Shown: in pieces, positions 961-23,752 of the stretch | Layout: every line of letters starts with the position of its first letter | How positions within the stretch are numbered: the first letter of the stretch is position 1 | Source of the DNA: Candidatus Thorarchaeota archaeon | GTDB lineage: Archaea > Asgardarchaeota > Heimdallarchaeia > Hodarchaeales > Hodarchaeaceae | Length of the DNA stretch: 24,000 nucleotides | NCBI GenBank assembly: GCA_048882505.1 | Contig: JBHLRO010000018.1 | Location: 1-24,000 of the forward strand | Direction: 5' to 3' | The notes under the pieces: model-generated | What the model was told of the DNA's origin: nothing | The model's input: only the letters and a program-made list of their open reading frames with translations | The model's database searches: none | Program-made: the position numbers and the translations under genes

Positions 961-1752
961 TTAACGGCTTTTCCGAGTTGCTATCCTTTCTGAAACGAAG
1001 TTGACTCGGCTGCAGAGTGCTATAAAGAGGTCATACATCCGCCTAAGATCCAAGGACTCATTAATGAGCGAATAGATTCTAATCGTTGGGTCGTCGGCAG
1101 AATCAATAGAAATCCGCACCAGTCCTTCTCGATTGTTGTAAATAGACTTAAGCAGATCTTTGTCACCAAGGAGAAAGAGACCGCTCTTCTGAGAAGTAGC
1201 TTTAATCAAAAAATACTCATCTAGGCTGGGAACGTTGAGAGTGATTGTATCAAGAGTGAATAACAGATCCTGATGCTTTCGGATTTGCCCTTCCTCCTTT
1301 TTTGGGATGATTTGAAGTTTTGTTTGGATTTTTCCTTTCTTGGCATTAGCTTCCAAAGCGATATAGTCCTTGGCTCCTGAAAACCATGAAATGATGACAG
1401 ACAACATCAGATGGCGTTCTTCCAGCGCAAAAACTACCCGAAAGTCTTTAAAAGGAGGTGAATAAGATCCTTTATAACGGGGAATTAGGAGGCCTCCATT
1501 GGAGGAGAGTTGGTCTACAATTAAGTCATCAAACTCCTGAGAGAACACATCAAGTAATAATTCACGATTTTTCTCAACGATTTTGTGGTTTTTTCTTCTG
1601 CCAGCCCAGAGCAAGTAGAAAGTATAGAATAGAATTAATGCAGGACCGATTAATGGGAGGACGAGATCCAACCAAGAGTAAGAGCCCGTCTGAAGGAAAA
1701 ATTGGCTCAGATTTTGAAAGAATTCCATCACTAGGTAAAAGAACGCCATCAT
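961..1752 (-). CDS. Hypothetical membrane-anchored protein (one N-terminal TM helix, ~200-aa soluble region of unknown fold)
   Basis: A 263-aa ORF with an ATG-ATG start. It has a hydrophobic helix LDLVLPLIGPALILFYTFYLLWAG followed by RRK. I recognise no motif in the remainder. It is co-directional with the JAMM gene and starts 45 nt downstream of it. Confidence 0.55.
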   Translation of the reverse strand: MMAFFYLVMEFFQNLSQFFLQTGSYSWLDLVLPLIGPALILFYTFYLLWAGRRKNHKIVEKNRELLLDVFSQEFDDLIVDQLSSNGGLLIPRYKGSYSPPFKDFRVVFALEERHLMLSVIISWFSGAKDYIALEANAKKGKIQTKLQIIPKKEEGQIRKHQDLLFTLDTITLNVPSLDEYFLIKATSQKSGLFLLGDKDLLKSIYNNREGLVRISIDSADDPTIRIYSLINESLDLRRMYDLFIALCSRVNFVSERIATRKSR

Positions 1753-3379: not shown

Positions 3380-4171
3380 ATGGCAGCGCTAACTGAAGTA
3401 AGTACCTGTAACGGCTGTGGGGCTCCTCTTCCTTTCAGACCAACAGCTGGGCAGGCGGTTAAATGTGAGTACTGTGATTTGACTAACTATTTGAAGAGAT
3501 CCGTAGCCCCTGCTGAAGTCGAACAAGGTTTGGATGAAGCGATCGAATCTGAAGTATATTACCAGATATACCAAACTGCTCAAGAGATTCTGGAAAATTT
3601 CCCAGGAGAGTATGTTGGTGATGAGATCGGCAAGCTCAGGATTAAAATGCAGGTCGGACAGTACGCTTTTACCCTTCTTCTTGTATTGGATGACCTACCA
3701 GATCGCCCCTATATTGACGGTCCAGCCAAATTACGTGAGATTTTAGATTGTGAGATGACAGAGCTAGAATCCATGAAAGAATGGCGACCTGGGGTAAGTT
3801 CCGTTTTGGAGGTGTTAGAGGAGATCCATCGCCGTGCCTCGGTCGCACTTCCGGAAGCAATGGGTGAGAGTCTAGCTTCAACTACTGGAGTGGTTCCAAC
3901 TGATAGAAAAGAACGGGATCCTCTGATTCAGAAGATTCTAAGTAATTATGATGCATCTGTTTCTAAAAAGGAGATATTAATTAGATTTTACGCGGAAACG
4001 GGCGATGTTATTAACTTTACCATTAAAAGGAAGAAGAATTTCCCTATTGGTCTTGAGAGCGAAATCCTTGCAAAATATCCGCTCATCCGTGGTCCCTTGG
4101 AGGATTATGCTAAAGGTCGAATTGATCTCCTGCAAACATTATCAGAAATTGAACGTTTATTATACGTTTAG
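3380..4171 (+). CDS. Zn-ribbon protein with a possible divergent UBC/UEV/RWD-like core (function unknown)
   Basis: ATG start. The N-terminus has CNGC-x15-CEYC (a four-Cys ribbon). Further on, YAFTLLLVLDDLPDRPYIDGPAKLREILDCEMTELESMKEWRPGVSSVLEVLEEI resembles the E2 pattern of YPxxPP flap ... C ... W-x-P-x-h-x-x-VL, but it lacks the HPN triad. It is the first gene of the plus-strand Ubl-E1 run. Confidence 0.55.
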   Translation: MAALTEVSTCNGCGAPLPFRPTAGQAVKCEYCDLTNYLKRSVAPAEVEQGLDEAIESEVYYQIYQTAQEILENFPGEYVGDEIGKLRIKMQVGQYAFTLLLVLDDLPDRPYIDGPAKLREILDCEMTELESMKEWRPGVSSVLEVLEEIHRRASVALPEAMGESLASTTGVVPTDRKERDPLIQKILSNYDASVSKKEILIRFYAETGDVINFTIKRKKNFPIGLESEILAKYPLIRGPLEDYAKGRIDLLQTLSEIERLLYV

Positions 4172-5882: not shown

Positions 5883-6233
5883 TTAATCGTCTGTTTTCGA
5901 GGGAATAAAAACTTTGATCTTCTTCCGTTCCTTAGGTTGAATTACGGGTATAGGGGGGTTAATATATGGTTTTTTATATCCTAACTCGGGTTCTACTGTA
6001 TCTTGCTTACCGAGCGAGGCAAGTTTATCGTAAAGCTGACTATAGATCTTATCCTTGGAGGGCTGTTGTTGATTGGATTTTTGAATAGGCTTGGAACGTT
6101 GATATCTCCTAGGTTGGGAAACGACATTGGCCTTCCCACAGCGAGGGCAAAACCAACGACCAGAAATCGGTTTATCTCTGGGAACATGACCACAATGTCG
6201 ACATTGTAAAGATTCTTCATTCTCTGGATTCAC
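5883..6233 (-). CDS. Small Zn-ribbon protein with a Lys/Pro/Gln-rich low-complexity tail (unknown function)
   Basis: CRHCGHVPRDKPISGRWFCPRCG (CxxC-x15-CxxC) at the N-terminus, followed by ~85 aa of polar low-complexity sequence. GTG start. It is a stand-alone gene, convergent with E1 and divergent from the 588-aa gene. Confidence 0.45.
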   Translation of the reverse strand: MNPENEESLQCRHCGHVPRDKPISGRWFCPRCGKANVVSQPRRYQRSKPIQKSNQQQPSKDKIYSQLYDKLASLGKQDTVEPELGYKKPYINPPIPVIQPKERKKIKVFIPSKTDD

Positions 6234-6425: not shown

Positions 6426-8192
6426 ATGATTTTCACAAACAGAGCCAAACGGTGGCTCTCTAAAGCACAGGCAACTGAAATTCCTCTTTTATTACCACAA
6501 GAAGACCGTACCGGGATTGCCGAGTTCCTGAGAGAAAAAATCGAAGCCAATGAGGTCTTTGGTATTGTTACTCCAGATGATACTACTTTCTTCCCTGATA
6601 AGTATATTGAACAAAACCTACGGCTCCAACTCCAAAAGCAGGGCTTCATTGACATCTGTGCTTTGATTGACCTGACCCAAGGTAAACTACCTGGGCGGAT
6701 ATTGGAATTGAAAATTCTGGCGCATGTCCAGGAAATAGATGGGTTTTTGGACATTATTTTTCGACGTTTTTTCACACCGCAGGGGGCAGAAAATTTCTTG
6801 AAACAATATTTAGCGAATAAGACCGTTGTGCCCTTAAAAACGATTTTGAATGACCTGTATTGGGGAGAAGACTACGTAGAAGCCATTTTAGACCTTCTAT
6901 CCGAGAAAAACCTTTTCCGTGGATACCTTGATCCAATTAAACAGCGATTATATAATTTTACAAACCTGAATTTCACTTCAGAAGTTGATCGGGAGAAGGC
7001 GAATAAGCAGCTAATTCGCTATATCAAGAGAAGCTTTCAACTGGGCGCCGAAGTAGCTATCAGTGATATTTGTGGGTTGACGGGATTTTCCCAAGAAGAG
7101 AGTATTCGTTTCCTGCAGAAAAATCGTGGATCCCTTAGTTTTGTGATTTCAACTAAGCGAAATTATGTATATCCCACTTTAGAGATCGTAATCAATATTT
7201 TGAGAGATCTTATTGTCTATCGAAAAGTTCCAATTGCATTCTGGGAACAGCGGCTTGATGTGGCAAAAATCGAGCTTTTAGGGCTATTACGAATCTTGAA
7301 TGGCAGCTTGAATGGCCAAATTTCGCCAACTACCTATTCAGGCCCTCTCCTACGCGAATGGTTTCGGAACGGTATTGATATCGAGGGATTGGCTGCAGAT
7401 CTAAATCTTGATCCCCTTCTTCTCCTCGGGCGCATCCGAACACTGGGAGAAAAATACGGATTAAGATTCATTGCGGGCGATACGGCCAATCCCTTTCTCC
7501 TCAAGGGCGTCCTAAGTTTCGAGATTTTTTGTCAGGTGGATACTTCTTCTTATCAAGATCCACATCTGTATTTTGAGTGCCAAAACTGTAAGCGAATATT
7601 GTGTAGCAATTGCAGGTCGGCGGGAAGCAAGCATAGCTGTCCTTTTTGTGAGAACATAGCGGCGTTCATTATTGATCTTCCACGGCACTGCCCTGATTGT
7701 AAGATTACCTACACGCATTCTTACAACCTAATAAGTACGGAAGAATGCTATTTCTGTAAAAAAGGCCCTTTGGCGAGCGGGTGGTTACCACCAAAGCCAA
7801 TATCCGATAAGCTCCTGGATCCCCATCTTTCAGAATTATTAGCTCATTCAGATTCAGAAATCCCATTGCAGGCGATAATTTCGACTTTGGGATGGTCTGA
7901 TGCAGAAGTAGTTGCCCATCTTGAAGAAATGATTATTTCTAACCAAATCAATGGCAATATCGACATATGGAATACTTCCCTCCGTCTTGAGCGAGCGCCC
8001 ACCTTGTTTCGTTGCAGTGTTTGTGAAAAACTTAAGACAGATAAAACTCGGTATAAATGTGTATCATGTAGCAATAACGTTTGTCTAACATGCCATGGTG
8101 ATATGCATACAGTAGGAATGGTTATCTGTCCCCAATGCAGTGGAGAGTTAAAACCAGAGGACTCTGGTACGTCATCTTCGAGTCAGGATTAG
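6426..8192 (+). CDS. Multi-winged-helix repeat protein with two Cys-rich Zn clusters (second ZZ-finger-like); function unknown, E3/adaptor candidate
   Basis: A 588-aa ORF with an ATG start and GAGGA upstream. Segments of the PCI/WH type recur at least six times, for example VVPLKTILNDLYWGEDYVEAILDLLSEKNLFRGYLD, VAISDICGLTGFSQEESIRFLQK...LSFVISTKRNYVYP and IPLQAIISTLGWSDAEVVAHLEEMIISNQINGNID. Cys cluster 1 spans aa 385-444 (nt 7578-7757) and has five CxxC pairs. Cys cluster 2 spans aa 530-571 (nt 8013-8138): CSVC-x11-(RYK)CVSC-x4-CLTCHGDMH-x8-CPQC. Confidence 0.7.
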   Translation: MIFTNRAKRWLSKAQATEIPLLLPQEDRTGIAEFLREKIEANEVFGIVTPDDTTFFPDKYIEQNLRLQLQKQGFIDICALIDLTQGKLPGRILELKILAHVQEIDGFLDIIFRRFFTPQGAENFLKQYLANKTVVPLKTILNDLYWGEDYVEAILDLLSEKNLFRGYLDPIKQRLYNFTNLNFTSEVDREKANKQLIRYIKRSFQLGAEVAISDICGLTGFSQEESIRFLQKNRGSLSFVISTKRNYVYPTLEIVINILRDLIVYRKVPIAFWEQRLDVAKIELLGLLRILNGSLNGQISPTTYSGPLLREWFRNGIDIEGLAADLNLDPLLLLGRIRTLGEKYGLRFIAGDTANPFLLKGVLSFEIFCQVDTSSYQDPHLYFECQNCKRILCSNCRSAGSKHSCPFCENIAAFIIDLPRHCPDCKITYTHSYNLISTEECYFCKKGPLASGWLPPKPISDKLLDPHLSELLAHSDSEIPLQAIISTLGWSDAEVVAHLEEMIISNQINGNIDIWNTSLRLERAPTLFRCSVCEKLKTDKTRYKCVSCSNNVCLTCHGDMHTVGMVICPQCSGELKPEDSGTSSSSQD

Positions 8193-9079
8193 CTGAGTTG
8201 GCTCTTATATTGCGCTAACTTCTTGGAGTACTTATCAGATAGTTCCTTGTATTTATCTTCTGAAATCTTCCCATTAAGGAACATTTCATCTGCTTGTTCC
8301 ACCATGAGTTCATATTTCTTGATTTTCTCTGCAATGTCATCAAACTGTTCTCGCTCTTCTGCCAAAGATCGCTGCTGTTCTAGAACCTGTTTTTCTACTT
8401 CATATGCCAGCAGAGATTGATACTCATCGGGAACCTTAAATCCCCCTATATCCAGTCCAACAAGTTCCAAGCCCCAGCGAGAAGTCTCAGGACCCAATTC
8501 CGCACGGGTCTGGATTTCAAGGCTGCGTCGTTCTCTCAATAATTCCGGAACTGTGTAACGGGACATCACATGCTTGACGGCCCCAATTATGGTTTGTTTC
8601 ACCCAGTTCTTTAGTTCCTCGCTTGAATAATACTGCCTGTGAGAGACTACATTTGAAATGAAATTTCGGGGATTAACTATCCTCATTCGGGAAATTCCGT
8701 AACAACCTATCATGACATTGTCTGCGGATAAAATCCCAGGCGTTCCCCATCTGATAACGAATTCTCGTTTACTTACCCAGATTATTTCGCTACCCGGGCG
8801 TTTTGCTAGCTTATCCAGTTCATATATTCCACTTCCTGCAACACCTACCAGTGTACCCGACTGTAGAAGTACAGCATTTTCAGGATCTTTGACAATAAAG
8901 CCATCATCTTTACGGAAACCATCTCGATCGTCAGAACGAACTCGTGAAACTAGCGAACCTCCATTCTCTTCACTAAAATCAGAGCTTAAGATGGTTTTTC
9001 CACGAAATCTTTTGGAACCAAGGTGTACTGCGTCGCCAATCCTGCGGAACAATCCCCCGAATTTCTCGACTTCTGTCAT
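8189..9079 (-). CDS. SPFH/Band-7 superfamily protein of the YdjI-like (Band_7_1) type with a C-terminal coiled coil
   Basis: The pattern ...AVLLQSGTLVGVAGSGIYEL...IIWVSKREFVIRWGTPGIL...GCYGISRMRIVNPRNF...WGLELVGLDIGGFKVPDEY matches the soluble YdjI/COG4260-type SPFH domain as I remember it. A heptad-rich tail follows (EQQRSLAEEREQ...KYKELSDKYSKKLAQYK). The ORF track starts at TTG 9091, overlapping the EAP30 stop. ATG 9079 lies 5 nt after that stop. Confidence 0.65.
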   Translation of the reverse strand: MTEVEKFGGLFRRIGDAVHLGSKRFRGKTILSSDFSEENGGSLVSRVRSDDRDGFRKDDGFIVKDPENAVLLQSGTLVGVAGSGIYELDKLAKRPGSEIIWVSKREFVIRWGTPGILSADNVMIGCYGISRMRIVNPRNFISNVVSHRQYYSSEELKNWVKQTIIGAVKHVMSRYTVPELLRERRSLEIQTRAELGPETSRWGLELVGLDIGGFKVPDEYQSLLAYEVEKQVLEQQRSLAEEREQFDDIAEKIKKYELMVEQADEMFLNGKISEDKYKELSDKYSKKLAQYKSQLS

Positions 9080-9084
9080 CTTTT

Positions 9085-10053
9085 TCACCAATCATCGCCA
9101 TAAAGGCCAGGAAAGTAGTACTGGTATCCCGAATCAAGAGAGGAAACTTTTCTTGCAATCTTTTGCTTAACTAGACCTTCCAAGACTCGTATCACACGTT
9201 GCTGTTCCCATTTTGTGTTTAAAACAACATCTTCAAGTGTAACAAAACCTTTGTCAACTGCAAGACTAAAAACGCGTTCAGCATCTTTACCCAATGAAAC
9301 GGGTACAAATTCAACGATTTTGACCCCTGAACGTTCTGAAATGCCCTCGATCAGTGATTGTTTCTGCAGATTTTTACACGCGTTTTCGATGTCCTTGACA
9401 GAGAACTTCACATCAGGAACCTGATCTTTTAGTGCGGTATAAAGGTTTGCAAGAGAAATATAGCCTCCGGAACTTGCGCGCAGATTTTTTCCATATTGGA
9501 GAACTAAATCTGAGATTTGGTCTCTAAATTTGCCCCTACCAAACAAACGGGGTCTTTCAGTTGCATCTAGCGCTGTGATTGTTAAAGCCCTACCTTCCTT
9601 ACGTAAAAGTTCTCTTTCAAGTTGCTGGATCCGCGTATCATAACGCTTTTGAAGATCCCTGATCTGTTCAGTCGAAACGCTGGCGCCATCGGCCAATTTT
9701 TGCTGAATATGGATTACTTCCCCCAAGCGAGCGATATGTTCACCAATTTCCTTTATGGTATTGCGGACCTCAATTCCTTCTTCACCAAAATCAAGATCTT
9801 CTGCTAGCTTTTGTGACTGTTCTGCAATTCTTTCACAGAGCACCGAGGCCAATAATTGGGCTACTCGAATTTCGCCACTTGTCTGGAGATCGGACTTGGT
9901 CTGGTCAGGATGAAGAATAAAATCAGGTATTGTTTCCGAACTGTAACGGATTTCTTCAAATTTCGTAAATAGATTCATAGAAATATCCGCAGCACTTCGG
10001 GCTTTTGTTGAAATACTATTGTTTAAGGCAATTAACGCCTTATTTGCCTTCAT
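9085..10053 (-). CDS. ESCRT-II-type EAP30 domain protein (Vps22/Vps36-like) with a long N-terminal coiled-coil region
   Basis: The C-terminal ~165 aa reads GGYISLANLYTALKDQ...SVKDIENACKNLQKQSLIEGISERSGVKIVEF...GFVTLEDVVLNTKWEQQRVIRVLEGLVKQKIARKVSSLDSGYQYYFPGLY. This is the tandem winged-helix EAP30 pattern, including the terminal Y-x-FP. The ORF track starts at TTG 10092. ATG 10053 (MKANKALIAL...) is preferred. Confidence 0.85.
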   Translation of the reverse strand: MKANKALIALNNSISTKARSAADISMNLFTKFEEIRYSSETIPDFILHPDQTKSDLQTSGEIRVAQLLASVLCERIAEQSQKLAEDLDFGEEGIEVRNTIKEIGEHIARLGEVIHIQQKLADGASVSTEQIRDLQKRYDTRIQQLERELLRKEGRALTITALDATERPRLFGRGKFRDQISDLVLQYGKNLRASSGGYISLANLYTALKDQVPDVKFSVKDIENACKNLQKQSLIEGISERSGVKIVEFVPVSLGKDAERVFSLAVDKGFVTLEDVVLNTKWEQQRVIRVLEGLVKQKIARKVSSLDSGYQYYFPGLYGDDW

Positions 10054-10255
10054 AAAATACTCTTGCAACGCTCTGAATCTCCAGAGGATCAAGTCTTTTT
10101 ATTCGATCAAAGCGAGTCCCTGCTTTCATCCTTAAAAACCTTGGCTTCTAGTATTGAAAAGCTGCTTTTCGAGGGAATTCCCAAACAAATATTAGCCCCC
10201 TCAAGAGATTGACCACGTTCTATCGTGGGAAAGAGAAATATTCCGAGTTTTACTA

Positions 10256-10753
10256 TTATTGGGGAGTTTTAGAAACCTTCAATGCCATAAGGTATGCCGC
10301 CTCATAATCACGGTAGTAATGTCGTATTTCTTTTACGATCTGAAATCCTACCTTTTGATATAAATTGATAGCAGGTTGATTGGATATCCTCACTTCCAAG
10401 AATAGTTCATTGGCGCCTGCTGCAATCATTGCTGCCATGGACTCTTTAATTAGTTTGGTCCCCATACCTTGACGTCTGTAAGGCGGGAGGACAGCCAGAC
10501 TAACGGTATGACCCTTTTTTGCTCTATGAAAAAGCGAAAAATGACTCATTCCTGACTCCAAACGGGCCATTGTATATCCTACTACTTGAGAATCGACTTC
10601 GCAAATAATGAACCCCGAAGGTAGCTCAGAATAGACGGTCCGAAAAAAATGTTCAGGATAATTTTCGGGCAAACAGATGCGATTAATTTCCTTTACTTGA
10701 TCAAGGAATTTCAATTCAAACGGGCGAATAATAATACCAGACTGTTCGGTCAT
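10256..10753 (-). CDS. GNAT N-acetyltransferase (RimI / archaeal Ard1-Naa10-like N-alpha-acetyltransferase)
   Basis: An acetyl-CoA motif LAVLPPYRRQGMGTKLI (R/Q-x-x-G-x-G/A) is present, along with ...LEVRISNQPAINLYQKVGF... and a typical ~165-aa size. Its start overlaps the Nop10 stop by 4 nt (ATGA). Confidence 0.85.
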   Translation of the reverse strand: MTEQSGIIIRPFELKFLDQVKEINRICLPENYPEHFFRTVYSELPSGFIICEVDSQVVGYTMARLESGMSHFSLFHRAKKGHTVSLAVLPPYRRQGMGTKLIKESMAAMIAAGANELFLEVRISNQPAINLYQKVGFQIVKEIRHYYRDYEAAYLMALKVSKTPQ

Positions 10754-10929
10754 AGGTGTCCCCTTTGTCTAGCAATCTCTTTCATCTGGCGCCTTAATTC
10801 CCAAAAACGATCGTGGAGAGAAAATTTAGGGGGATATGCCGAGTGGAATTCCAATCCACAATTTTCACATATAGCTTTGTCTTGTATGATGGTATAATGA
10901 CCATTTGGGCATTTCCTCAAAAGACGCAT
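10750..10929 (-). CDS. nop10: H/ACA RNP subunit Nop10
   Basis: MRLLRKCPNGHYTIIQDKAICENCGLEFHSAYPPKFSLHDRFWELRRQMK parallels archaeal Nop10 (…KKCPKCGLYTLKEICPKCGEKT…PPKFSLEDRWGKYRR…). It sits in the conserved S27e-aIF2alpha-Nop10 gene order. The track starts at GTG 10935; ATG 10929 is preferred. Confidence 0.85.
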   Translation of the reverse strand: MRLLRKCPNGHYTIIQDKAICENCGLEFHSAYPPKFSLHDRFWELRRQMKEIARQRGHL

Positions 10930-10955
10930 TGTCACACCTTAGGGTTCAAGGATGA

Positions 10956-11741
10956 TTACTTACGTTCAAAGGATATCTCTGTGTCGTATGTAGCAAAGAA
11001 TTGCGAGACTTCTCCTTGAACATCCTTCCAAATCTTTTCTGCTTCTCTCCAATCGATACTTTCGATGACACATCTGTATGTTGGAGGAGAAATTATTTGA
11101 AGGTTGAATTTACTCCCTTTATGCTTATTTCTAAAGTTTTTATCATAAGAAGTAAAAAAATCAGCAAGTAAATCCGCACCATTCGCCTCATAACAGGTGA
11201 TATTAACGTGACCAGTCAATTGAACCGTAGGAGGCTCCAGCTCCTTCACAGCCAATTGATAGATTTCTTTTGCCGCTTCCTTCGGGATATCTAATTTTAC
11301 TAAGTGATTAGCATTTTTATCCCGGACTGACATTAATCCTTCGTAGATGGAACCGAATTTACGAAATAGAACTTTTTCAACATCCTCAACAGGAATGCCC
11401 GCTTTTTCACATGCTACTGCCACAATTCCCCTTGCACGATTCTCTTGTTTGAACTCATTCAGTTTTTGTCTACGCTGAGGCTCAGAAACCTGTTTGATGG
11501 ACATGTCGATCTCCCCACGGTCAATATCCACCCTTAATATTTTCGCTACTGTTCGTTGGCCCTCTCGAATGTAGCTACGGATATGGCGTACCCAAGTGCG
11601 ACTTAATTCTGAAATGTGAACGAACCCTACCTCTGCTCCAAGGGTTTCGTAATCGAAAATCTCAAAATAGGCGCCATGGTTAGTTACTTTGGAACAGGTT
11701 CCGATAACCAATTCCCCGACTGCTGGATATCCATCTTCCAA
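10956..11741 (-). CDS. eif2a: Translation initiation factor aIF2 alpha subunit
   Basis: The N-terminal S1 domain reads GELVIGTCSKVTNHGAYFEIFDY...GFVHISELSRTWVRHIRSYIREGQRTVAKILRVDIDRGEIDMSIKQV, followed by helical and alpha-beta domains of the expected length. TTG start, with GGTAGGTG 8 nt upstream. Confidence 0.9.
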   Translation of the reverse strand: MEDGYPAVGELVIGTCSKVTNHGAYFEIFDYETLGAEVGFVHISELSRTWVRHIRSYIREGQRTVAKILRVDIDRGEIDMSIKQVSEPQRRQKLNEFKQENRARGIVAVACEKAGIPVEDVEKVLFRKFGSIYEGLMSVRDKNANHLVKLDIPKEAAKEIYQLAVKELEPPTVQLTGHVNITCYEANGADLLADFFTSYDKNFRNKHKGSKFNLQIISPPTYRCVIESIDWREAEKIWKDVQGEVSQFFATYDTEISFERK

Positions 11742-11751
11742 TTATTCACAC

Positions 11752-11946
11752 CTACCTTGGATCTAACACTTCGAGGACTTCCCCTATAATATACGCCATC
11801 CCAGCTCTCGGTTTTGCAAGAATGTTTCCACAAACACGACATTCCACCTGGCTAGTTGCATGGGAAAAGATTTCTTGCACATTACCACACTCACACGAGA
11901 CCTTGAGGAAATTACTTCGAGTAGTAGGAATACGTTTTTCTTTCAC
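11752..11946 (-). CDS. rps27e: Ribosomal protein S27e
   Basis: SNFLKVSCECGNVQEIFSHATSQVECRVCGNILAKPRAGMAYI is the C4 zinc-ribbon signature of eS27. It is 64 aa long with a GTG start. Confidence 0.9.
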   Translation of the reverse strand: MKEKRIPTTRSNFLKVSCECGNVQEIFSHATSQVECRVCGNILAKPRAGMAYIIGEVLEVLDPR

Positions 11947-12150
11947 ATACGGCCACCATTTTATTTTGCATAGAAATTGAACAATCAGTGGTACTCGCTA
12001 TTCAGAGCACTCTGCCAACTTTAATCACCAGTCTATTGTCAAAAAAGACAAAAACGGGGTTTCTTTTAAAGCTCAACTGGGCTTCATTCTTACTTTACGG
12101 ATCACTCTACAACAAGTAGAATATACTCAGAACTTATTAAGACAGGGAAA

Positions 12151-12777
12151 TTACTCCGTTTCTCTTACACTATTTATATATGTCTTAATAAGTCTAGCTA
12201 CCCCCTTAGAAATCAGAGCGTTAGCATTATCTTGTGGCAAACTTACAACGTCGTTTTCTGAAAAAGGACCATATTCCCTGTTGTCTATTCCAACTATCTT
12301 TTCTACATCTGTGAGGATTCTGACCATACTTCGGGGATGTGTCTCTAAAGGATGAGTTTCAATAGAAAGATCGTTTAGGTAATCTTCTGGACCATTAGAA
12401 TATTCTGTTGAAACGGTTAAATCCTGATTAACAAATCCCACTGTTTTAATGGATTTTGTTAAATCACGAAGCAGTTTTAACTCTCCCCAAGTGAGGAATT
12501 CCTCCTCCAAGGTAATGTTATGGGTTACGGCATAGAGTATCTTGGATAGCCGTAGCTGAGAAATATCCTTACGAAGAAATTCCATCCTTTTAAGGACCAC
12601 TTGGTGTAGGGATCCCCAATCAGCAGATTTCATTTGAGTTTTTTGGTTTAAAATTGCCAATTGCCCATCTATTACGATATAAAAGTCTGCGGGTATCCTC
12701 TGAAGTGCCATTAAAGTGCGTTCATTCATCCACAGTTCATATAACTCTTGATAATCCAAATCATCACCCTGGTACAC
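12151..12777 (-). CDS. GINS complex subunit (Gins51/Gins15-type, A+B domains)
   Basis: The N-terminus YQELYELWMNERTLMALQRIPADFY...LRLSKILYAV...TWGELKLLRDLTKSI is the A-domain helical pattern. The C-terminus VRILTDVEKIVGIDNREYGPFSENDVVSLPQDNANALISKGVARLI is B-domain-like. GTG start. The assignment rests on remembered archaeal Gins51 patterns. Confidence 0.6.
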   Translation of the reverse strand: MYQGDDLDYQELYELWMNERTLMALQRIPADFYIVIDGQLAILNQKTQMKSADWGSLHQVVLKRMEFLRKDISQLRLSKILYAVTHNITLEEEFLTWGELKLLRDLTKSIKTVGFVNQDLTVSTEYSNGPEDYLNDLSIETHPLETHPRSMVRILTDVEKIVGIDNREYGPFSENDVVSLPQDNANALISKGVARLIKTYINSVRETE

Positions 12778-12841
12778 CCATTACTTGGTGATTTTCCTAA
12801 TTTGGACCAACACTCTTTTGAAAATGGAGCCACTGGTGGGA

Positions 12842-12871
12842 ATTTCATGAAGATCCCGCAAGACCTACCAT
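12842..12871 (-). other. tRNA-Thr intron 2 (T-loop, around position 59/60; boundary ambiguous because of an AAAT repeat)
   Basis: The minus-strand sequence ATGGTAGGTCTTGCGGGATCTTCATGAAAT lies between GTGGGTTCAAA and TCCCAC. It contains an internal hairpin, AGGTC-TTGCGG-GATCT. Confidence 0.6.
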
Positions 12872-12917
12872 TTTGAACCCACGACATCCTCCTTACCAAG
12901 GAGGCGCTATAACCGGG

Positions 12918-12945
12918 CTACTCTTCTGGGCAAATGCCACAAAAA
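12918..12945 (-). other. tRNA-Thr intron 1 (D-loop, after about position 15; boundary ambiguous by up to 3 nt because of a TAG repeat)
   Basis: The minus-strand sequence TTTTTGTGGCATTTGCCCAGAAGAGTAG lies between ...GCTTAG and CCCGGTTATAGC.... It contains an internal hairpin, GGC-ATTT-GCC. I could not confirm a strict bulge-helix-bulge geometry by eye. Confidence 0.6.
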
Positions 12946-13125
12946 CTAAGCCACAGTGGCTAAACAACATTCATTGACATTTGTTTCGATGACTAGCCTC
13001 GAAATCTAGTCTCAATACCTTGTCACTACTGAAGAGCATGATGATGTCGAATTTATCATCTTTTCCCGCAACCTAAAAAGCGCAAGGAGGCTTTATTATG
13101 ATCCTTTTTCGGGGTCTTGCTCGCC

Positions 13126-13953
13126 ATGGTAAGTTCAGAATTAAACTTGCTGCTCTTATCTACCGTGATTCTCCTGCTGTCGATAGCTTCTTGGCAGGAC
13201 ATACAATCAAGGGAGGTAACGGATTGGATATGGTTTGGAATTGCGGGAACGGGTATAATACTACATGGTCTCAGTATCATAGAACTTGTGTTGGCTAGCC
13301 TGTCTCCGATACCTTACTCTCTAACCATAATTATCAATATTATTACTGGAACTCTAATCGCTCTATTCTTAAGTATTTTAGGTCTCGGAGGAGAGGCAGA
13401 CCGAATTTCTTTCATTGCAATTTCTACTATTTCCCCCGTTACCGATCCACTTTTTGGTAACATTGATGCAAGGTATGAAATCCTTATTGATATTCTTCCA
13501 AGGATCTTAGGTACCTTTTGCAATTCATATTTGGCAGCCATAACAGTTCCTGTAGTGATATTTGGATATAATCTTGTAAAAAATCGTTCTAATCCACATC
13601 TTTATTCACTTCCCGATGAATCTCAGAAGACCCGTTTAATTATCCGCTTTATTGGATATCCACGCAACACGAGCGGCCTCAAAAATGATCTAATGACAAA
13701 ACCGTGGCATTACGACTTGCTAGAAGAATATTCAGAAACACGGAAATGGCACGTTAATTTTCGATTTCAGCTGGATTCTCCTGAGGACGATCTGGCTCGA
13801 AAAAGGAAGATTATTGAAATAATAGAATCAACGGGGAAACAAGTGGTCTGGATTCAGCCCTCTCTTCCGTTCATCCTGTTTATAACCCTGGGTTTCTTAT
13901 TAGATCTGGTTTTTGGAAATGTTATTTTTCTAGGGATCAGTGTGTTGATATGA
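13126..13953 (+). CDS. A24-family GxGD aspartyl membrane protease (FlaK/PibD-like prepilin/prearchaellin peptidase)
   Basis: Three segments parallel Methanococcus FlaK as I remember it. ASWQDIQSREVTDWIWF matches ASVQDFRSREIEDYIW, the first catalytic Asp. LGLGGEADRISF matches GIGGGDGKML, the GxGD region. VVWIQPSLPFILFITLGFL matches EIWVTPQIPLIIPITL. The protein has multiple TM helices and a soluble insert. The track start is TTG 13117; ATG 13126 is preferred. Confidence 0.65.
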   Translation: MVSSELNLLLLSTVILLLSIASWQDIQSREVTDWIWFGIAGTGIILHGLSIIELVLASLSPIPYSLTIIINIITGTLIALFLSILGLGGEADRISFIAISTISPVTDPLFGNIDARYEILIDILPRILGTFCNSYLAAITVPVVIFGYNLVKNRSNPHLYSLPDESQKTRLIIRFIGYPRNTSGLKNDLMTKPWHYDLLEEYSETRKWHVNFRFQLDSPEDDLARKRKIIEIIESTGKQVVWIQPSLPFILFITLGFLLDLVFGNVIFLGISVLI

Positions 13954-14089: not shown

Positions 14090-14584
14090 TTGATCGACCC
14101 GAGACGATTTGATACGGTCTTAAGCAAAATCATTAAGAGTGAGCCTGGTATTAAAAAGGTCATACTTGTAGATCGGACAGGGCTAACAATTGCTCATGCC
14201 AGCAAGTATGATTATGCCTCAATAGATGTGGATGGGATCGGGGCCATTGCCTCAGCTGTGTTCATGGCCTCCGCAGAACAAGGCTCAAATTTAACCATCG
14301 GAGGATTAGGAATTGTAACCTCTGAATTTGATACAGGAAAAATCTTTGCGTCTTCATGTGGGAAAGGCATACTAACCCTGATTTCGGATGCGGAAGTCAA
14401 TATCGGGATGATTCGTCTTTTGATGCGGCAGGCCAATGATGAGCTTGCTAGTACCTTAGATGAGTTTTTAGCAGGAAAACCCACGAGAGTACCCTCTAGT
14501 GGGATGACAGCGGCCCCTGAGGTTCGTACTAGCTTGGAAAAGGATGAACTCGAAGCAGCTTTGAGAGAACTGGAGAAATTTTAG
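14090..14584 (+). CDS. mglB: Roadblock/LC7 domain protein (MglB-like)
   Basis: ...GIKKVILVDRTGLTIAHASK...IGAIASAVFMASAEQGSNLTIGGLGIVTSEFDTGKIFASSCGKGILTLISDAEVNIGMIRLLMRQA is the typical Roadblock alpha-beta-alpha pattern, followed by an acidic C-terminal tail. TTG start with GGAG upstream. It lies immediately upstream of the MglA-like GTPase. Confidence 0.8.
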   Translation: MIDPRRFDTVLSKIIKSEPGIKKVILVDRTGLTIAHASKYDYASIDVDGIGAIASAVFMASAEQGSNLTIGGLGIVTSEFDTGKIFASSCGKGILTLISDAEVNIGMIRLLMRQANDELASTLDEFLAGKPTRVPSSGMTAAPEVRTSLEKDELEAALRELEKF

Positions 14585-14612
14585 ATCATTCTGTGTAGTG
14601 GTCAGATGCCAC

Positions 14613-15197
14613 ATGGTTAGAAAGGATGCGGAAGGACGTCAGCGTTATAAAATAGTATTTTACGGCCCCTCGCTAGGTGGAAAAACTACCACCCTAAGAT
14701 GGTTGTACGATCAGGTAGATGGGCTCGATAAAGGAAAATTTACTCAATTAGCTGATCCTACGGGGAGAACCCTCTTCTTTGATTTTGCACCCATGCAGGC
14801 TACAACGGGCGTGGTTTTTGATGTATATACGACTGCCGGGCAGGATCGGCACAAAAGCCAGCGAAAAATAGTAATTCAAGGTGTAGATGGATTAATCTTT
14901 GTGGTCGATTCCTCCAAATCACAGCTCGAAGAAAATCTCGCCTCTATCAGTGAACTGCGTGCACATGTTGGAGATAAGCTCGGAAAAAGCATTCCAATGG
15001 TCATTACACTGAATAAAAGGGATGTGCCGGATGCATTACCTCGTTCTGAGTTGGTCGATATTCTTAAGCTTACGCAATTTCCGATATATGAAACAGTTGC
15101 CACGACAGGCATTGGAGTCAAGCGAGCTTTTCAATCATTGGCACGGGAAATTATAATGATCCAGCTCTACGGAACGAAAGATTCCCAGGTTACTTAA
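14613..15197 (+). CDS. mglA: MglA-family small GTPase
   Basis: Motifs seen: KIVFYGPSLGGKTTTLRWLY (G1), GRTLFFDFAP, VYTTAGQDR (G3), GVDGLIFVVDSS, TLNKRDVPDA (G4) and TVATTGIGV (G5). They are collinear with M. xanthus MglA (KIVYYGPGLCGKTTNL / DRTLFFDFLP / LYTVPGQ / GVDGVVFVADSQ / YNKRDLPNA / AVAPTGVGV). The track start is GTG 14598; ATG 14613 is preferred. Confidence 0.88.
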   Translation: MVRKDAEGRQRYKIVFYGPSLGGKTTTLRWLYDQVDGLDKGKFTQLADPTGRTLFFDFAPMQATTGVVFDVYTTAGQDRHKSQRKIVIQGVDGLIFVVDSSKSQLEENLASISELRAHVGDKLGKSIPMVITLNKRDVPDALPRSELVDILKLTQFPIYETVATTGIGVKRAFQSLAREIIMIQLYGTKDSQVT

Positions 15198-15870: not shown

Positions 15871-16275
15871 GTGTACATACCCGATGCCGAGGCCGATCAA
15901 GCGGTTCATAAGGAAATCAATGAAGTTCTAGAGGCTTTTGTGAGTAAACTCCCGGCAATAGACTTTGCCAGTGTTGTGTCCCTAGAGGGGTTGCCCATTT
16001 CGTCATTCCCACCCACATTACCCAATAATCTAGATGATGTCCGAGTAGCAGCAATGACAGCAGCAATCCTTAGCTTAGGAGAACGCGCAGTCATGGAAAC
16101 AAATAAGGGGGAAATGTCAAAAATTTATGTCGAGGGGGAGAACGGGTACTTGATTTCGGTTCAAAGCGGTAGTAAAGCAGTATTAACCGCATCTGCGAAT
16201 AAATCTGTTAAATTGGGTCTAATCTTTTTAGATATGAAACAAGCCGCGAAAAAGATCGGGGAGATTTTGGGTTAG
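15871..16275 (+). CDS. Roadblock/LC7 domain protein (second copy)
   Basis: INEVLEAFVSKLPAIDFASVVSLEGLPISS...VRVAAMTAAILSLGERAVMETNKGEMSKIYVEGENGYLISVQSGSKAVLTASANKSVKLGLIFLDMKQAAKKI is a canonical Roadblock pattern. GTG start, preceded by a ~400-nt spacer. Confidence 0.8.
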   Translation: MYIPDAEADQAVHKEINEVLEAFVSKLPAIDFASVVSLEGLPISSFPPTLPNNLDDVRVAAMTAAILSLGERAVMETNKGEMSKIYVEGENGYLISVQSGSKAVLTASANKSVKLGLIFLDMKQAAKKIGEILG

Positions 16276-22366: not shown

Positions 22367-23752
22367 TTGGCTGTACCAAAGGATCCCCCGAGTACAGAAA
22401 CTATTATTCGCATGGCTGCCGCAATTTTAACCCATCTTGATAATAATCAAGTGTCTCTTAGGAATGCCATGAAGATTTTTCCGACCCTAACTTCTCACAA
22501 CAATCCCTCTTTATATGCCCAGGTGAATGCTCTTACATTTGAAACTATACGTTATAGAAATACTCTCAATCGTCTTATCTATAACCATATACAACGTTTT
22601 CTGAGTGAGGCGCTCCCTGATTCTGTGTTAAATTTATTGCGTGTCGTGGTTTATCTGCTTGCGCTTGCTCCAGAGTCCCAAAGTACAGAACAATGGCGGC
22701 TAGGATGTCACGCGGTTTTAAAGACTATCACCTCACACAATCTTCCCGAAATACTGATGGATCTTGATTCGATTTTCACAGATTGGCATCTCTCTGAACT
22801 TCTTTTGACAATCAATGATCCTGAGGAGAGATTAGCCGTTCAATTCGCTCATCCGACTTGGCTGGTTCGTGATTTCACGCAGTACTATGGTCGAGAAACC
22901 ACCGTTCAGATTTTAACCACGAATAACAAGATTCTTCCGACCTATCTAAGATTGAATCTTATGAAGTATACGAAAGATGAGATCATTCAAACATTAAGAG
23001 CTGAAAAAGTCACCTTGGAAGAAGACCCTGATTTTAATGATATTATTCGTGCCGTGAATTGGGAATTACCCCTTCCCCGGCTACCCTCATTTAATAAAGG
23101 GCTATACTACATCCAAAACAAAGGATCTGCTCTTGTTTCCCATATCTTGAATCCTCGACCTGGAGAAACAGTTTTAGACGCATGTGCTGCTCCTGGAGGC
23201 AAGACGACCCACATTGCTGCTTTGCAGCAAGAACAAGGAAAAATAATTGCTTTAGACAATCATGAGAGAAGAATTGCAGAGCTGATACGTAAAATTAAAC
23301 TGTACAAATTGCGTACCATTTATCCCCTCCTCACTGACGTGAGGAAGCTACCCGTTAACGACCTTTTTCATATCCGTTTCGATAAGATTCTCGTTGACGC
23401 CCCGTGTTCTGGAACTGGAACTTTTTCATCCAGACCAGACGCTAAATGGAGGATAAATCGCCATCAAGTGAAATGGTTGAGTAAACTCCAGCTTGGGTTG
23501 TTATCCCAGGCATCCCAACTGCTCAAACCGAATCCAACTTCACGGTTGGTCTATGCCACCTGTAGCCTTCTACCCATGGAAAATGAGGACGTAATCGCGA
23601 AATTTTTGGATGAAAATCCAAATTTTACTCTAAAACCGCAATACCCCTATATTGGAACACCGATATCAGATTTCCCATTAGCACAACGTTTGTTTCCTCA
23701 CAAAACTCAAACTGAAGGCTTTTCAATATTCAAGCTTGGACTTCACAATTGA
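22367..23752 (+). CDS. NOL1/NOP2/Sun-family RNA (cytosine-C5) methyltransferase (RsmB/Nop2-like, with N-terminal NusB-like domain)
   Basis: VLDACAAPGGKTTHIA (SAM motif I), DKILVDAPCSGTGT (motif IV, Cys) and LVYATCSLLPMENE (motif VI, Cys) are present. The start is TTG 22367, with GGAGGAG 7 nt upstream. Confidence 0.9.
   Translation: MAVPKDPPSTETIIRMAAAILTHLDNNQVSLRNAMKIFPTLTSHNNPSLYAQVNALTFETIRYRNTLNRLIYNHIQRFLSEALPDSVLNLLRVVVYLLALAPESQSTEQWRLGCHAVLKTITSHNLPEILMDLDSIFTDWHLSELLLTINDPEERLAVQFAHPTWLVRDFTQYYGRETTVQILTTNNKILPTYLRLNLMKYTKDEIIQTLRAEKVTLEEDPDFNDIIRAVNWELPLPRLPSFNKGLYYIQNKGSALVSHILNPRPGETVLDACAAPGGKTTHIAALQQEQGKIIALDNHERRIAELIRKIKLYKLRTIYPLLTDVRKLPVNDLFHIRFDKILVDAPCSGTGTFSSRPDAKWRINRHQVKWLSKLQLGLLSQASQLLKPNPTSRLVYATCSLLPMENEDVIAKFLDENPNFTLKPQYPYIGTPISDFPLAQRLFPHKTQTEGFSIFKLGLHN

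Follow-up and report, generated by a model that had tools for sequence, protein, structure and literature searches.

RESULTS AND DISCUSSION

A UFL1-like gene with predicted zinc fingers

The window analysed here, the first 24,000 nucleotides (nt) of contig JBHLRO010000018.1 from a Hodarchaeales archaeon, carries on its forward strand a gene for a 588-residue protein in which an array of winged-helix (WH) domains, very probably homologous to that of the eukaryotic ligase UFL1, is joined to two putative cross-brace zinc fingers and a Zn ribbon. Around it lie the genes of a ubiquitin-type conjugation cascade (Table 1), of which we consider the window protein the probable E3.

The AlphaFold2 model, built from an alignment of 48 homologues, has a mean predicted local distance difference test (pLDDT) of 87 and a predicted template modelling score of 0.76. 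In order, its units are an N-terminal helix (N-helix), a partial WH (pWH), WH1–WH5, a first Cys-rich region (residues 367–460), a sixth WH (466–521) and a second Cys-rich region (528–580). The original prediction, which came from reading the sequence by itself, had placed WH signatures at residues 20, 72, 134, 208, 268, 316 and 479–522, and all of them fall inside the modelled units pWH to WH6.

Searching with the window protein yielded 50 homologues, all of them from Heimdall/Hodarchaeales; the conservation counts given throughout refer to 48 homologues, with 42–90% identity to it. When 1.84 billion representative proteins were searched with the profile, 79 matched at E ≤ 1e-3, 14 of them at E ≤ 1e-30; the family is small. 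Its named members belong to Heimdallarchaeota or Hodarchaeota/Hodarchaeales, along with a few metagenome-assembled genomes (MAGs) filed only as Promethearchaeota, Hermod- or Thorarchaeota, and their public annotations read “hypothetical,” “PCI domain-containing” or “DC1 domain-containing.”

Table 1. Coordinates of the UFL1-like gene, its domains, its neighbours in the window and the loci of the second subfamily (Ubl, ubiquitin-like protein)
Feature	Position (nt)	Strand	Evidence or remark
UFL1-like 588-residue protein with putative zinc fingers, whole gene	6426–8192	+	intact open reading frame (ORF), ATG to TAG
N-terminal helix (residues 2–16) and pWH (21–57), colinear with the N-helix and pWH of UFL1	6429–6596	+	AlphaFold2 secondary structure; profile alignment
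Five tandem WH: WH1 58–116, WH2 118–177, WH3 186–250, WH4 251–305, WH5 309–362	6597–7511	+	AlphaFold2 model
Finger 1 (367–410), predicted cross-brace binuclear: C369/D372, C385/C388, C393/C396, C405/C408	7524–7655	+	invariant ligands; hhalign to finger 2
Putative Zn ribbon (420–446): C422/C425, C441/C444	7683–7763	+	invariant Cys pairs
WH6 (466–521), PCI-type winged helix	7821–7988	+	Pfam PCI; Foldseek
Finger 2 (528–575), predicted: C-x2-C-x11-C-x2-C-x4-C-x2-C-x11-C-x2-C, central helix 554–562	8007–8150	+	eight invariant Cys
263-residue membrane protein	961–1752	-	hydrophobic N-terminal segment, then invariant “RRKN”
JAB/MPN deubiquitinase-like protein, 180 residues	1798–2340	-	Pfam Prok-JAB, JAB
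Canonical UBC-type E2, 181 residues	2368–2913	-	Pfam UQ_con 5e-23
263-residue protein between E2 and Ubl	3380–4171	+	N-terminal CxxC-x15-CxxC ribbon, many invariant residues
Ubl ending in GG, 101 residues	4213–4518	+	Pfam ubiquitin, Rad60-SLD; conserved tail IVPDQIKGG
E1-like activating enzyme, ThiF fold, 413 residues	4603–5844	+	Pfam ThiF 1e-50
Zn-ribbon protein, 116 residues, long low-complexity tail	5883–6233	-	weak Zn-ribbon Pfam matches
SPFH/Band 7 protein	8189–9091	-	Pfam Band_7; convergent with the UFL1-like gene
EAP30/Vps22-36-like ESCRT-II protein	9085–10092	-	Pfam EAP30; two genes downstream of the UFL1-like gene
Second-subfamily locus L030 (Heimdall/Hodarchaeota MAG)	8278–13314		
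Second-subfamily locus L031 (Heimdall/Hodarchaeota MAG)	8268–13397		
Second-subfamily locus L032 (Heimdall/Hodarchaeota MAG)	8198–12134		

The winged-helix array and UFL1

Four independent lines of evidence relate the array to UFL1, namely fold, the profile match among PDB sequences, a Pfam family and domain order, and on these we hold the two arrays to be homologous with high confidence. The published order in UFL1 is an N-terminal helix (residues 1–25), a partial WH and five WH domains (PMC9627666), and the same N-helix/pWH/five-WH architecture is seen in the model. With the full model against the PDB, the top seven Foldseek matches are all human UFL1 or UFL1–DDRGK1 (8ohd_A, E = 1.7e-9 over 368 aligned columns), at about 11–13% identity to UFL1 in the Foldseek alignments; the next fold classes, TFIIIC, ESCRT-II Vps22, SelB and CSN2, begin at E = 0.02. 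The original prediction had likened the protein to UFL1 as a scaffold-type E3 built of WH repeats. The model does contain the repeats, with human UFL1 as its top match, and the likeness goes beyond analogy to homology.

At the level of sequence, the four best hmmsearch matches of the family profile among PDB sequences are UFL1 chains (E 8e-7 to 9e-6), with profile positions 21–103 aligned to UFL1 residues about 20–103. The first ~60 residues align to human UFL1 almost position for position. The Pfam family PF09743 (E3_UFM1_ligase) is matched by 28/48 members at E < 0.1, in relatives at residues about 67–205, and the best score in the family is that of P0037 (27.5 bits against a curated cut-off of 23.2). 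A more distant Asgard protein, P0077 from Candidatus Ranarchaeia, has both a PF09743 match of 4.6e-20 and a C-terminal WH, finger and ribbon matching residues 317–445 of the window protein, and forms a bridge between the UFL1 family and the window protein. Apart from P0077 itself, nothing came back from a word-indexed search for homologues of P0077.

Common to UFL1 (PF09743; PDB 8ohd, 8qfc, 8c0d, 8b9x) and the window protein are thus the N-helix, the pWH and five PCI-like WH domains. The two part at the C-terminal end, which in UFL1 is a helical region with no Zn finger, whereas the window protein has two predicted cross-brace fingers, a Zn ribbon and a sixth WH there.

The array also bears on a different kind of function. 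A DNA- or RNA-binding regulator, perhaps controlling the ubiquitin/ESCRT cluster, would fit a WH array with Zn ribbons, a common design among archaeal transcription factors, and the secondary Foldseek matches do include TFIIIC tauB, Pol III subunit chains and SelB (E 0.02–0.1), while the family profile weakly matches the archaeal transcription factor PF0095 (E 0.11). We think such a role very improbable: the matches to nucleic-acid binders fall short of those to UFL1 by at least seven orders of magnitude, the WH domains are of the protein-binding type seen in PCI proteins and UFL1, and the WH-finger module recurs on WD40 and NHL proteins (see below), which is not a transcription-factor layout.

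Two predicted zinc fingers and a ribbon

The Cys-rich regions contain nine CxxC pairs. The five pairs of the first cluster (nt 7578–7757, residues 385–444: C385/388, C393/396, C405/408, C422/425 and C441/444) lie exactly where the original prediction had put them, although the cluster itself begins earlier, with C369-x2-D372. In an hhalign comparison of family sub-alignments, residues 369–408 fall on residues 530–571 with P = 2.5e-5, and C369-x2-D372 takes the place of the first CxxC. Because this pair would be the first ligand pair of a finger homologous to the second cluster, the first cluster is best read, from its sequence, as a putative binuclear finger followed by a separate Zn ribbon, and not as five equivalent pairs. 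IBR/RBR and NZF readings of it were dropped on spacing, by inspection only. The second cluster (nt 8013–8138, residues 530–571) is also positioned as predicted, with its four pairs C530/533, C545/548, C553/556 and C568/571 invariant in the 48 homologues.

All 20 ligand positions, that is the 18 CxxC cysteines plus C369 and D372, are invariant in 48/48 homologues; the clusters are not there by chance. In distant relatives the first pair of finger 1 is C-x2-C (P0056, P0077) or C-x2-H (P0068); a choice of Cys, Asp or His at ligand 2 is as expected of a metal ligand. Successive ligand pairs of finger 1 are separated by x12/x4/x8 and those of finger 2 by x11/x4/x11, and each finger follows directly on a WH domain. 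In total about five Zn sites are predicted, one of them with Asp372 as a ligand.

The most conserved part of the whole protein is finger 1 together with the ribbon (majority fractions 0.88 and 0.82), where 43/91 columns are invariant, 23/46 in the finger and 20/45 in the ribbon. Finger 2, modelled at a pLDDT of 85–93, shows little conservation apart from its ligands. RING domains contact the E2 through a hydrophobic residue that precedes ligand 2 and a Pro that follows ligand 7. Both positions are kept in the two fingers: V/I/L is found at position 371 in 48/48 homologues and at 532 in 45/48, and the Pro at P406 in 48/48 and at P569 in 44/48.

Class of the fingers

From the ligand pattern and the Foldseek matches, both fingers are predicted to belong to the cross-brace binuclear class that comprises RING, ZZ, PHD and C1 domains. 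With RING E3s (C4C4 RINGs such as CNOT4, the prokaryotic RING families and Nse1) they share eight ligands in four pairs, a pattern consistent with a cross-brace, as well as the hydrophobic residue before ligand 2 and the “CP-x-C” at ligands 7–8, and finger 2 has the central helix. They differ from RINGs in that all ligands are Cys save the Asp at position 2 of finger 1, and in the x4 between ligands 4 and 5. The ZZ domains (p62/SQSTM1, dystrobrevin; PF00569) and DC1/C1_2 domains (PF03107) are likewise cross-brace binuclear and of similar size. In the ZZ of p62 the final pair is H-x3-H and ligands 4 and 5 are x5 apart; in the window finger the final pair is C-x2-C and the spacing is x4.

Pfam models match the fingers as C1_2 in 25/48 members, as ZZ in 3/48 (best E = 6.8e-4) and as RING in a few members, with a weak Prok-RING_4 match in P0055. 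The second cluster had originally been called ZZ-like and compared with p62. Its assignment to the wider cross-brace class agrees with this, but the ZZ model finds no match in the window protein at E ≤ 10, and the final ligand pair is C568-x2-C571 rather than H-x3-H. The p62-like “TRYKC” that had been singled out is peculiar to the window sequence, the family consensus being only xxYxCxSC.

The weak PDB matches of the family profile to finger 2 are mostly RINGs (UHRF1 0.015, BRE1 0.027, MAT1, TRIM32, NOT4). For the Foldseek search with the C-terminal half, this half was modelled alone, and in that model finger 1 and the ribbon reach a pLDDT of only 50–65, so the search informs on WH6 and finger 2 only. 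Its best match is Nse1, a tandem-WH protein with a variant RING (E = 4.3e-3, 160 columns), followed in order by PCI-type WH domains, the RING 3lrq, the p62 ZZ 5ypf and the UFBP1 WH 8oj0_C, to which the likeness of WH6 is weak. The RING and the p62 ZZ score similarly, the latter (5ypf_A) with a template modelling score of 0.64–0.68 normalised to the ZZ.

WH6 and the neighbouring JAB protease

WH6 is a PCI-type winged helix: Pfam PF01399 matches residues 475–513 of the window protein at E = 8.2e-5 (23.2 bits against a cut-off of 22) and is found in 41/48 members, and in Foldseek it can be laid over the WH domains found in CSN2 and in proteasome-lid PCI subunits with a root-mean-square deviation of 1.4–2.8 Å and up to 28% identity. 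These matches would suit a protein that serves the neighbouring JAB/MPN isopeptidase as a PCI-type scaffold, in an early form of the PCI-MPN pairing of the proteasome lid and COP9 signalosome that would regulate deconjugation or the processing of a Ubl precursor. The JAB gene is linked in both of the gene arrangements described below, and the Ubl of the second arrangement has an extension after its GG that would need processing. We nevertheless rate this role as improbable, for true PCI proteins have an N-terminal helical-repeat solenoid and the AlphaFold2 model has none, the best global match is UFL1, and two conserved cross-brace fingers would be left unexplained. The PCI signal itself does not discriminate between the two, because UFL1 and UFBP1, too, have WH domains that have been described as PCI-like.

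The conjugation genes around the UFL1-like gene

The linked E1, E2 and Ubl are, by their sequence matches, of ubiquitin type and not of UFM1 type. The E1 has its best PDB matches in UBA1, UBA7 and UBA3 (E about 1e-32 to 1e-28), with UBA5 at only about 1e-18. The E2 has its best PDB matches among canonical ubiquitin E2s, E2-K, UBC4 and UbcH5 included, and no UFC1 chain is among the 60 matches shown. Compared by eye with UbcH5, this E2 has ~7 extra residues that separate its HPN motif from the catalytic Cys (HPNIAVGETRWKWGSNVC). A PDB search with the single Ubl sequence had given a full-length, weak match to mouse UFM1 (1j0g, E = 0.019). A nine-sequence Ubl profile matched ubiquitin and ubiquitin variants instead, with UFM1 absent from the top 60, and for this reason the idea of a proto-UFMylation cluster was abandoned.

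Gene order is fixed in 22 Hodarchaeales species-representative genomes wherever the contig reaches: Arf, membrane protein, JAB, E2, 263-residue protein, Ubl, E1, Zn-ribbon protein, UFL1-like gene, SPFH, EAP30, GNAT, ..., aIF2alpha. The 116-residue Zn-ribbon protein is encoded divergently, immediately upstream of the UFL1-like gene, in every main-family locus whose contig reaches; at 36–44% identity across most loci (87% in the closest relative, L008) it evolves fast, and is the fastest gene of the cluster. The 263-residue protein at 3380–4171 lies always between E2 and Ubl where main-family contigs reach, with 56–69% identity (92% in the closest relative), and may belong to the core of the cluster as a component yet to be characterised. 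The other 263-residue protein, at 961–1752, keeps 59–64% identity across loci.

Searches with four-sequence profiles of these two 263-residue proteins gave nothing meaningful in PDB, Pfam or NCBIfam, a weak negative. Either could have been a counterpart of the UFL1 partner UFBP1/DDRGK1; the PDB profile searches gave no DDRGK1 signal (again a weak negative), and this assignment was set aside. A membrane anchor beside a UFL1-like gene, as at 961–1752, still recalls UFBP1/DDRGK1 by analogy, with no similarity detected. At E ≤ 0.01 none of the other cluster genes matches a RING model in Pfam; for two of the conserved neighbours there was no match to any Pfam family.

Downstream, the stop codon TAG of the UFL1-like gene (8190–8192) overlaps the stop TAA of the convergent SPFH gene (minus strand, 8189–8191) by two bases, which leaves no intergenic room for a terminator. 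Elsewhere in the window, Arf-family small GTPases and Roadblock/LC7 proteins are encoded at 355–930, 14090–15197 and 15871–16275. A Roadblock gene (14090–14584) lies directly upstream of an Arf-like GTPase gene (14598–15197), an arrangement like that of the Roadblock-GTPase operon known from Asgard archaea. Only its synteny with locus L002 marks the ORF at 15871–16275 as Roadblock. Two small ORFs on the minus strand, 10750–10935 (61 residues) and 11752–11946 (64 residues), occupy the positions of Nop10 and ribosomal protein S27e in syntenic loci, and a 461-residue ORF with a TTG start (22367–23752, plus strand) lies downstream of NMD3. Searches of the window for tRNA genes and for Rfam families gave none.

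A second subfamily keeps the conjugation genes

A second subfamily, the P0055 clade, has 27% identity and retains the full architecture (592–618 residues) in a different locus, of which three examples were found. Upstream, and divergent, is a 546–548-residue UFL1-like paralogue with no finger 2. Directly downstream is a Ubl with 54–59% identity to that of the window, which in L030 carries the five-residue extension after the GG (GGAFFQS). JAB and then a UBC E2 follow the Ubl in 2/3 of these loci, the third contig ending first, and SPFH and EAP30 genes are absent from all three as far as the contigs reach. Because the second subfamily keeps Ubl, JAB and E2 but, in the loci examined, has no SPFH or EAP30, what is conserved is a functional link with Ubl conjugation and not with ESCRT-II.

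This arrangement bears directly on the suggestion, made in the original prediction, of an ESCRT-II accessory subunit, and on a related role as a ubiquitin receptor or adaptor that would pass ubiquitylated cargo to ESCRT-II and an SPFH membrane domain, the fingers binding ubiquitin or protein termini in the manner of the Vps36 NZF or a ZZ and the WH array docking onto ESCRT-II WH domains. The ESCRT-II proteins Vps22/EAP30, Vps25 and Vps36 are tandem-WH proteins like the window protein, their Foldseek matches to it being weak and generic (E 0.02–0.09). Neither the window protein nor any of the 48 members matches the EAP30 or Vps25 Pfam families. With no such signal, and with Vps22 (3cuq_A) at E = 0.02 only against 1.7e-9 for UFL1, we rejected membership of ESCRT-II; the likeness is that of tandem WH proteins in general, and the second-subfamily loci do not support the association.

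The receptor or adaptor role has more in its favour, in that the gene adjoins SPFH and EAP30 in 22/22 main-family loci wherever the contig reaches, the WH array resembles Vps22 and Vps25 chains and the p62 ZZ is among the Foldseek matches. We still find it unlikely, if somewhat less so than the scaffold of a JAB protease. Synteny of the whole region makes adjacency within Hodarchaeales uninformative, and the second subfamily, in the loci examined, keeps the conjugation genes without these two. The match to UFL1 is about seven orders of magnitude better than that to ESCRT-II, the fingers are predicted to be binuclear cross-braces and not of NZF type, and the positions corresponding to the acidic N-degron pocket of the p62 ZZ are not conserved in the family alignment.

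The WH-finger unit on other proteins

The pairing of a PCI-type WH with a finger recurs on other proteins of the same group of archaea. It forms the C-terminal end of a WD40 protein with seven blades (P0116/P0138) and is found on an NHL-propeller protein (P0112), it ends the 915-residue, PF09743-positive P0087, and it occurs twice in the 376-residue P0068; a finger-plus-ribbon module is found at the C-termini of P0077, P0080 and P0087. P0138 and P0001, the closest homologue of the window protein with 90% identity, share a locus-tag prefix and so come from the same genome. A propeller with a RING-like finger is a classic E3 layout, and eukaryotic RING E3s likewise combine their RING with WD40 or NHL domains. 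The presence of the module on such propellers thus supports an effector role for the finger.

A candidate E3 of the adjacent cascade

Taken together, the evidence leads us to favour, as the probable though by no means certain function, an E3 for the adjacent ubiquitin-type cascade: a UFL1-type scaffold whose RING-like fingers recruit E2~Ub. The cascade would run from the E1 through the UBC-type E2 to the Ubl ending in GG, with the JAB protease alongside and the window protein as its E3. In this scheme the RING-like fingers would dock and activate the E2~Ubl, and the WH array would serve as a rigid scaffold placing substrates or partners. The N-helix/pWH end could offer a second contact to the E2 or to a partner, since in UFL1 this end contacts the E2 and needs the partner UFBP1. 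The roles as ubiquitin receptor/ESCRT-II adaptor and as JAB scaffold are not mutually exclusive with E3 function.

UFL1 acts with UFC1, UFM1 and UBA5, and UFBP1/DDRGK1 completes its pWH. The neighbours of the window gene are instead a canonical UBC E2, a ubiquitin-like Ubl and a UBA1/UBA3-like E1, a comparison that is one of genomic context only. UFL1 has no RING, HECT or RBR domain and is for that reason called a scaffold-type E3, with WH domains that are PCI-like, as are those of UFBP1 (PMC9627666). Two of the features that define UFL1, the lack of a catalytic-type finger and the use of UFC1/UFM1, are not found for the window protein, and so we do not file it as a UFL1 orthologue but as a UFL1-homologous E3 with RING-like fingers.

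Several points weigh against this assignment. PF09743 has no match in the window protein itself even at E ≤ 10, and most relatives score under its curated cut-off; given also the annotations noted above, domain-based surveys could miss the family. For the fingers, neither Pfam, PDB-profile nor Foldseek matches tell RING, ZZ, PHD and C1 apart: all RING, ZZ and C1_2 Pfam scores shown fall under the curated cut-offs, the Foldseek E-values against RING and ZZ structures are 0.02–0.15 (prob 1.0), the x4 between ligands 4 and 5 compares with x2–3 in classical RINGs, and there is the low pLDDT of the excised finger 1 and ribbon. Main-family synteny extends to unrelated housekeeping genes (GNAT, aIF2alpha, Gins51), so that adjacency within Hodarchaeales alone is weak evidence. 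Eukaryotic UFL1 works with no finger, and the WH array alone could therefore be the active part. Finally, we infer that the protein binds Zn and the E2 and that it acts as a ligase on substrates. With a protein of small size that looks soluble and is modelled with confidence, and with the genes of its partners adjoining, reconstitution in vitro looks feasible.

Relation to published Asgard E3 genes

The combined architecture had seemed unfamiliar in the original prediction; genes of this kind are less novel than was then thought. IPR018611 is the UFL1 family. In Hatano et al. 2022 (PMC9192718), this entry is diagnostic of the ubiquitin-ligase E3 in Asgard Ub-ESCRT clusters, the ubiquitin and ESCRT genes are described as clustered together in Heimdallarchaeota, and “Asgard archaeal UFM1” sequences serve as the outgroup for Vps22/36/25. 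One of the genomes of that study, B3_Heim, carries the window gene (locus L023). Asgard UFL1-like “E3” genes of Ub-ESCRT clusters also appear in Picchianti et al. 2023 (PMC10183829), and these genes share with the window gene the kind of locus and the inferred role. The fusion reported by Liu et al. 2020 (bioRxiv 10.1101/2020.10.19.343400) joins Vps28/Vps23, adaptin/COPI C-terminal domains and a UFL1 domain, and differs from the window protein in that architecture.

UFL1-like “E3” genes in Asgard Ub-ESCRT clusters are thus already published. Within the portions consulted, the published accounts of Asgard ubiquitin and UFL1 genes contain no mention of finger modules, of the repeated WH-finger unit, of the D372 ligand, of the second-subfamily locus or of combinations with WD40/NHL, and we found no description there of the finger-bearing architecture.

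Implications for the origin of UFL1

UFL1 is the odd one among E3s in lacking RING, HECT and RBR domains, and work continues on the way in which its WH array activates an E2. An archaeal relative that joins a UFL1-like array to RING-like fingers, inside a cluster with E1, E2, Ubl and JAB, gives a testable scenario for where UFL1 came from. We put forward, tentatively and with more doubt than confidence, that UFL1 goes back to an Asgard ubiquitin ligase of RING type that bore fingers and worked with a canonical UBC E2 and a Ubl, that the UFM1 ligase arose by loss of the fingers and re-targeting of the WH array to UFC1/UFM1, and that the WH-finger unit is an unrecognised, portable E3 module of Hodarchaeales, also mounted on WD40 and NHL substrate-binding domains. 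That the enigmatic UFM1 ligase may descend from a ubiquitin ligase with fingers is the attractive point here, and one that can be tested. Should the fingers prove irrelevant, the window protein would still be a minimal UFL1-type scaffold, perhaps one that needs no UFBP1 partner. For the organism itself, it is a candidate for the missing E3 of the ubiquitin system of Hodarchaeales, the lineage currently placed closest to eukaryotes.

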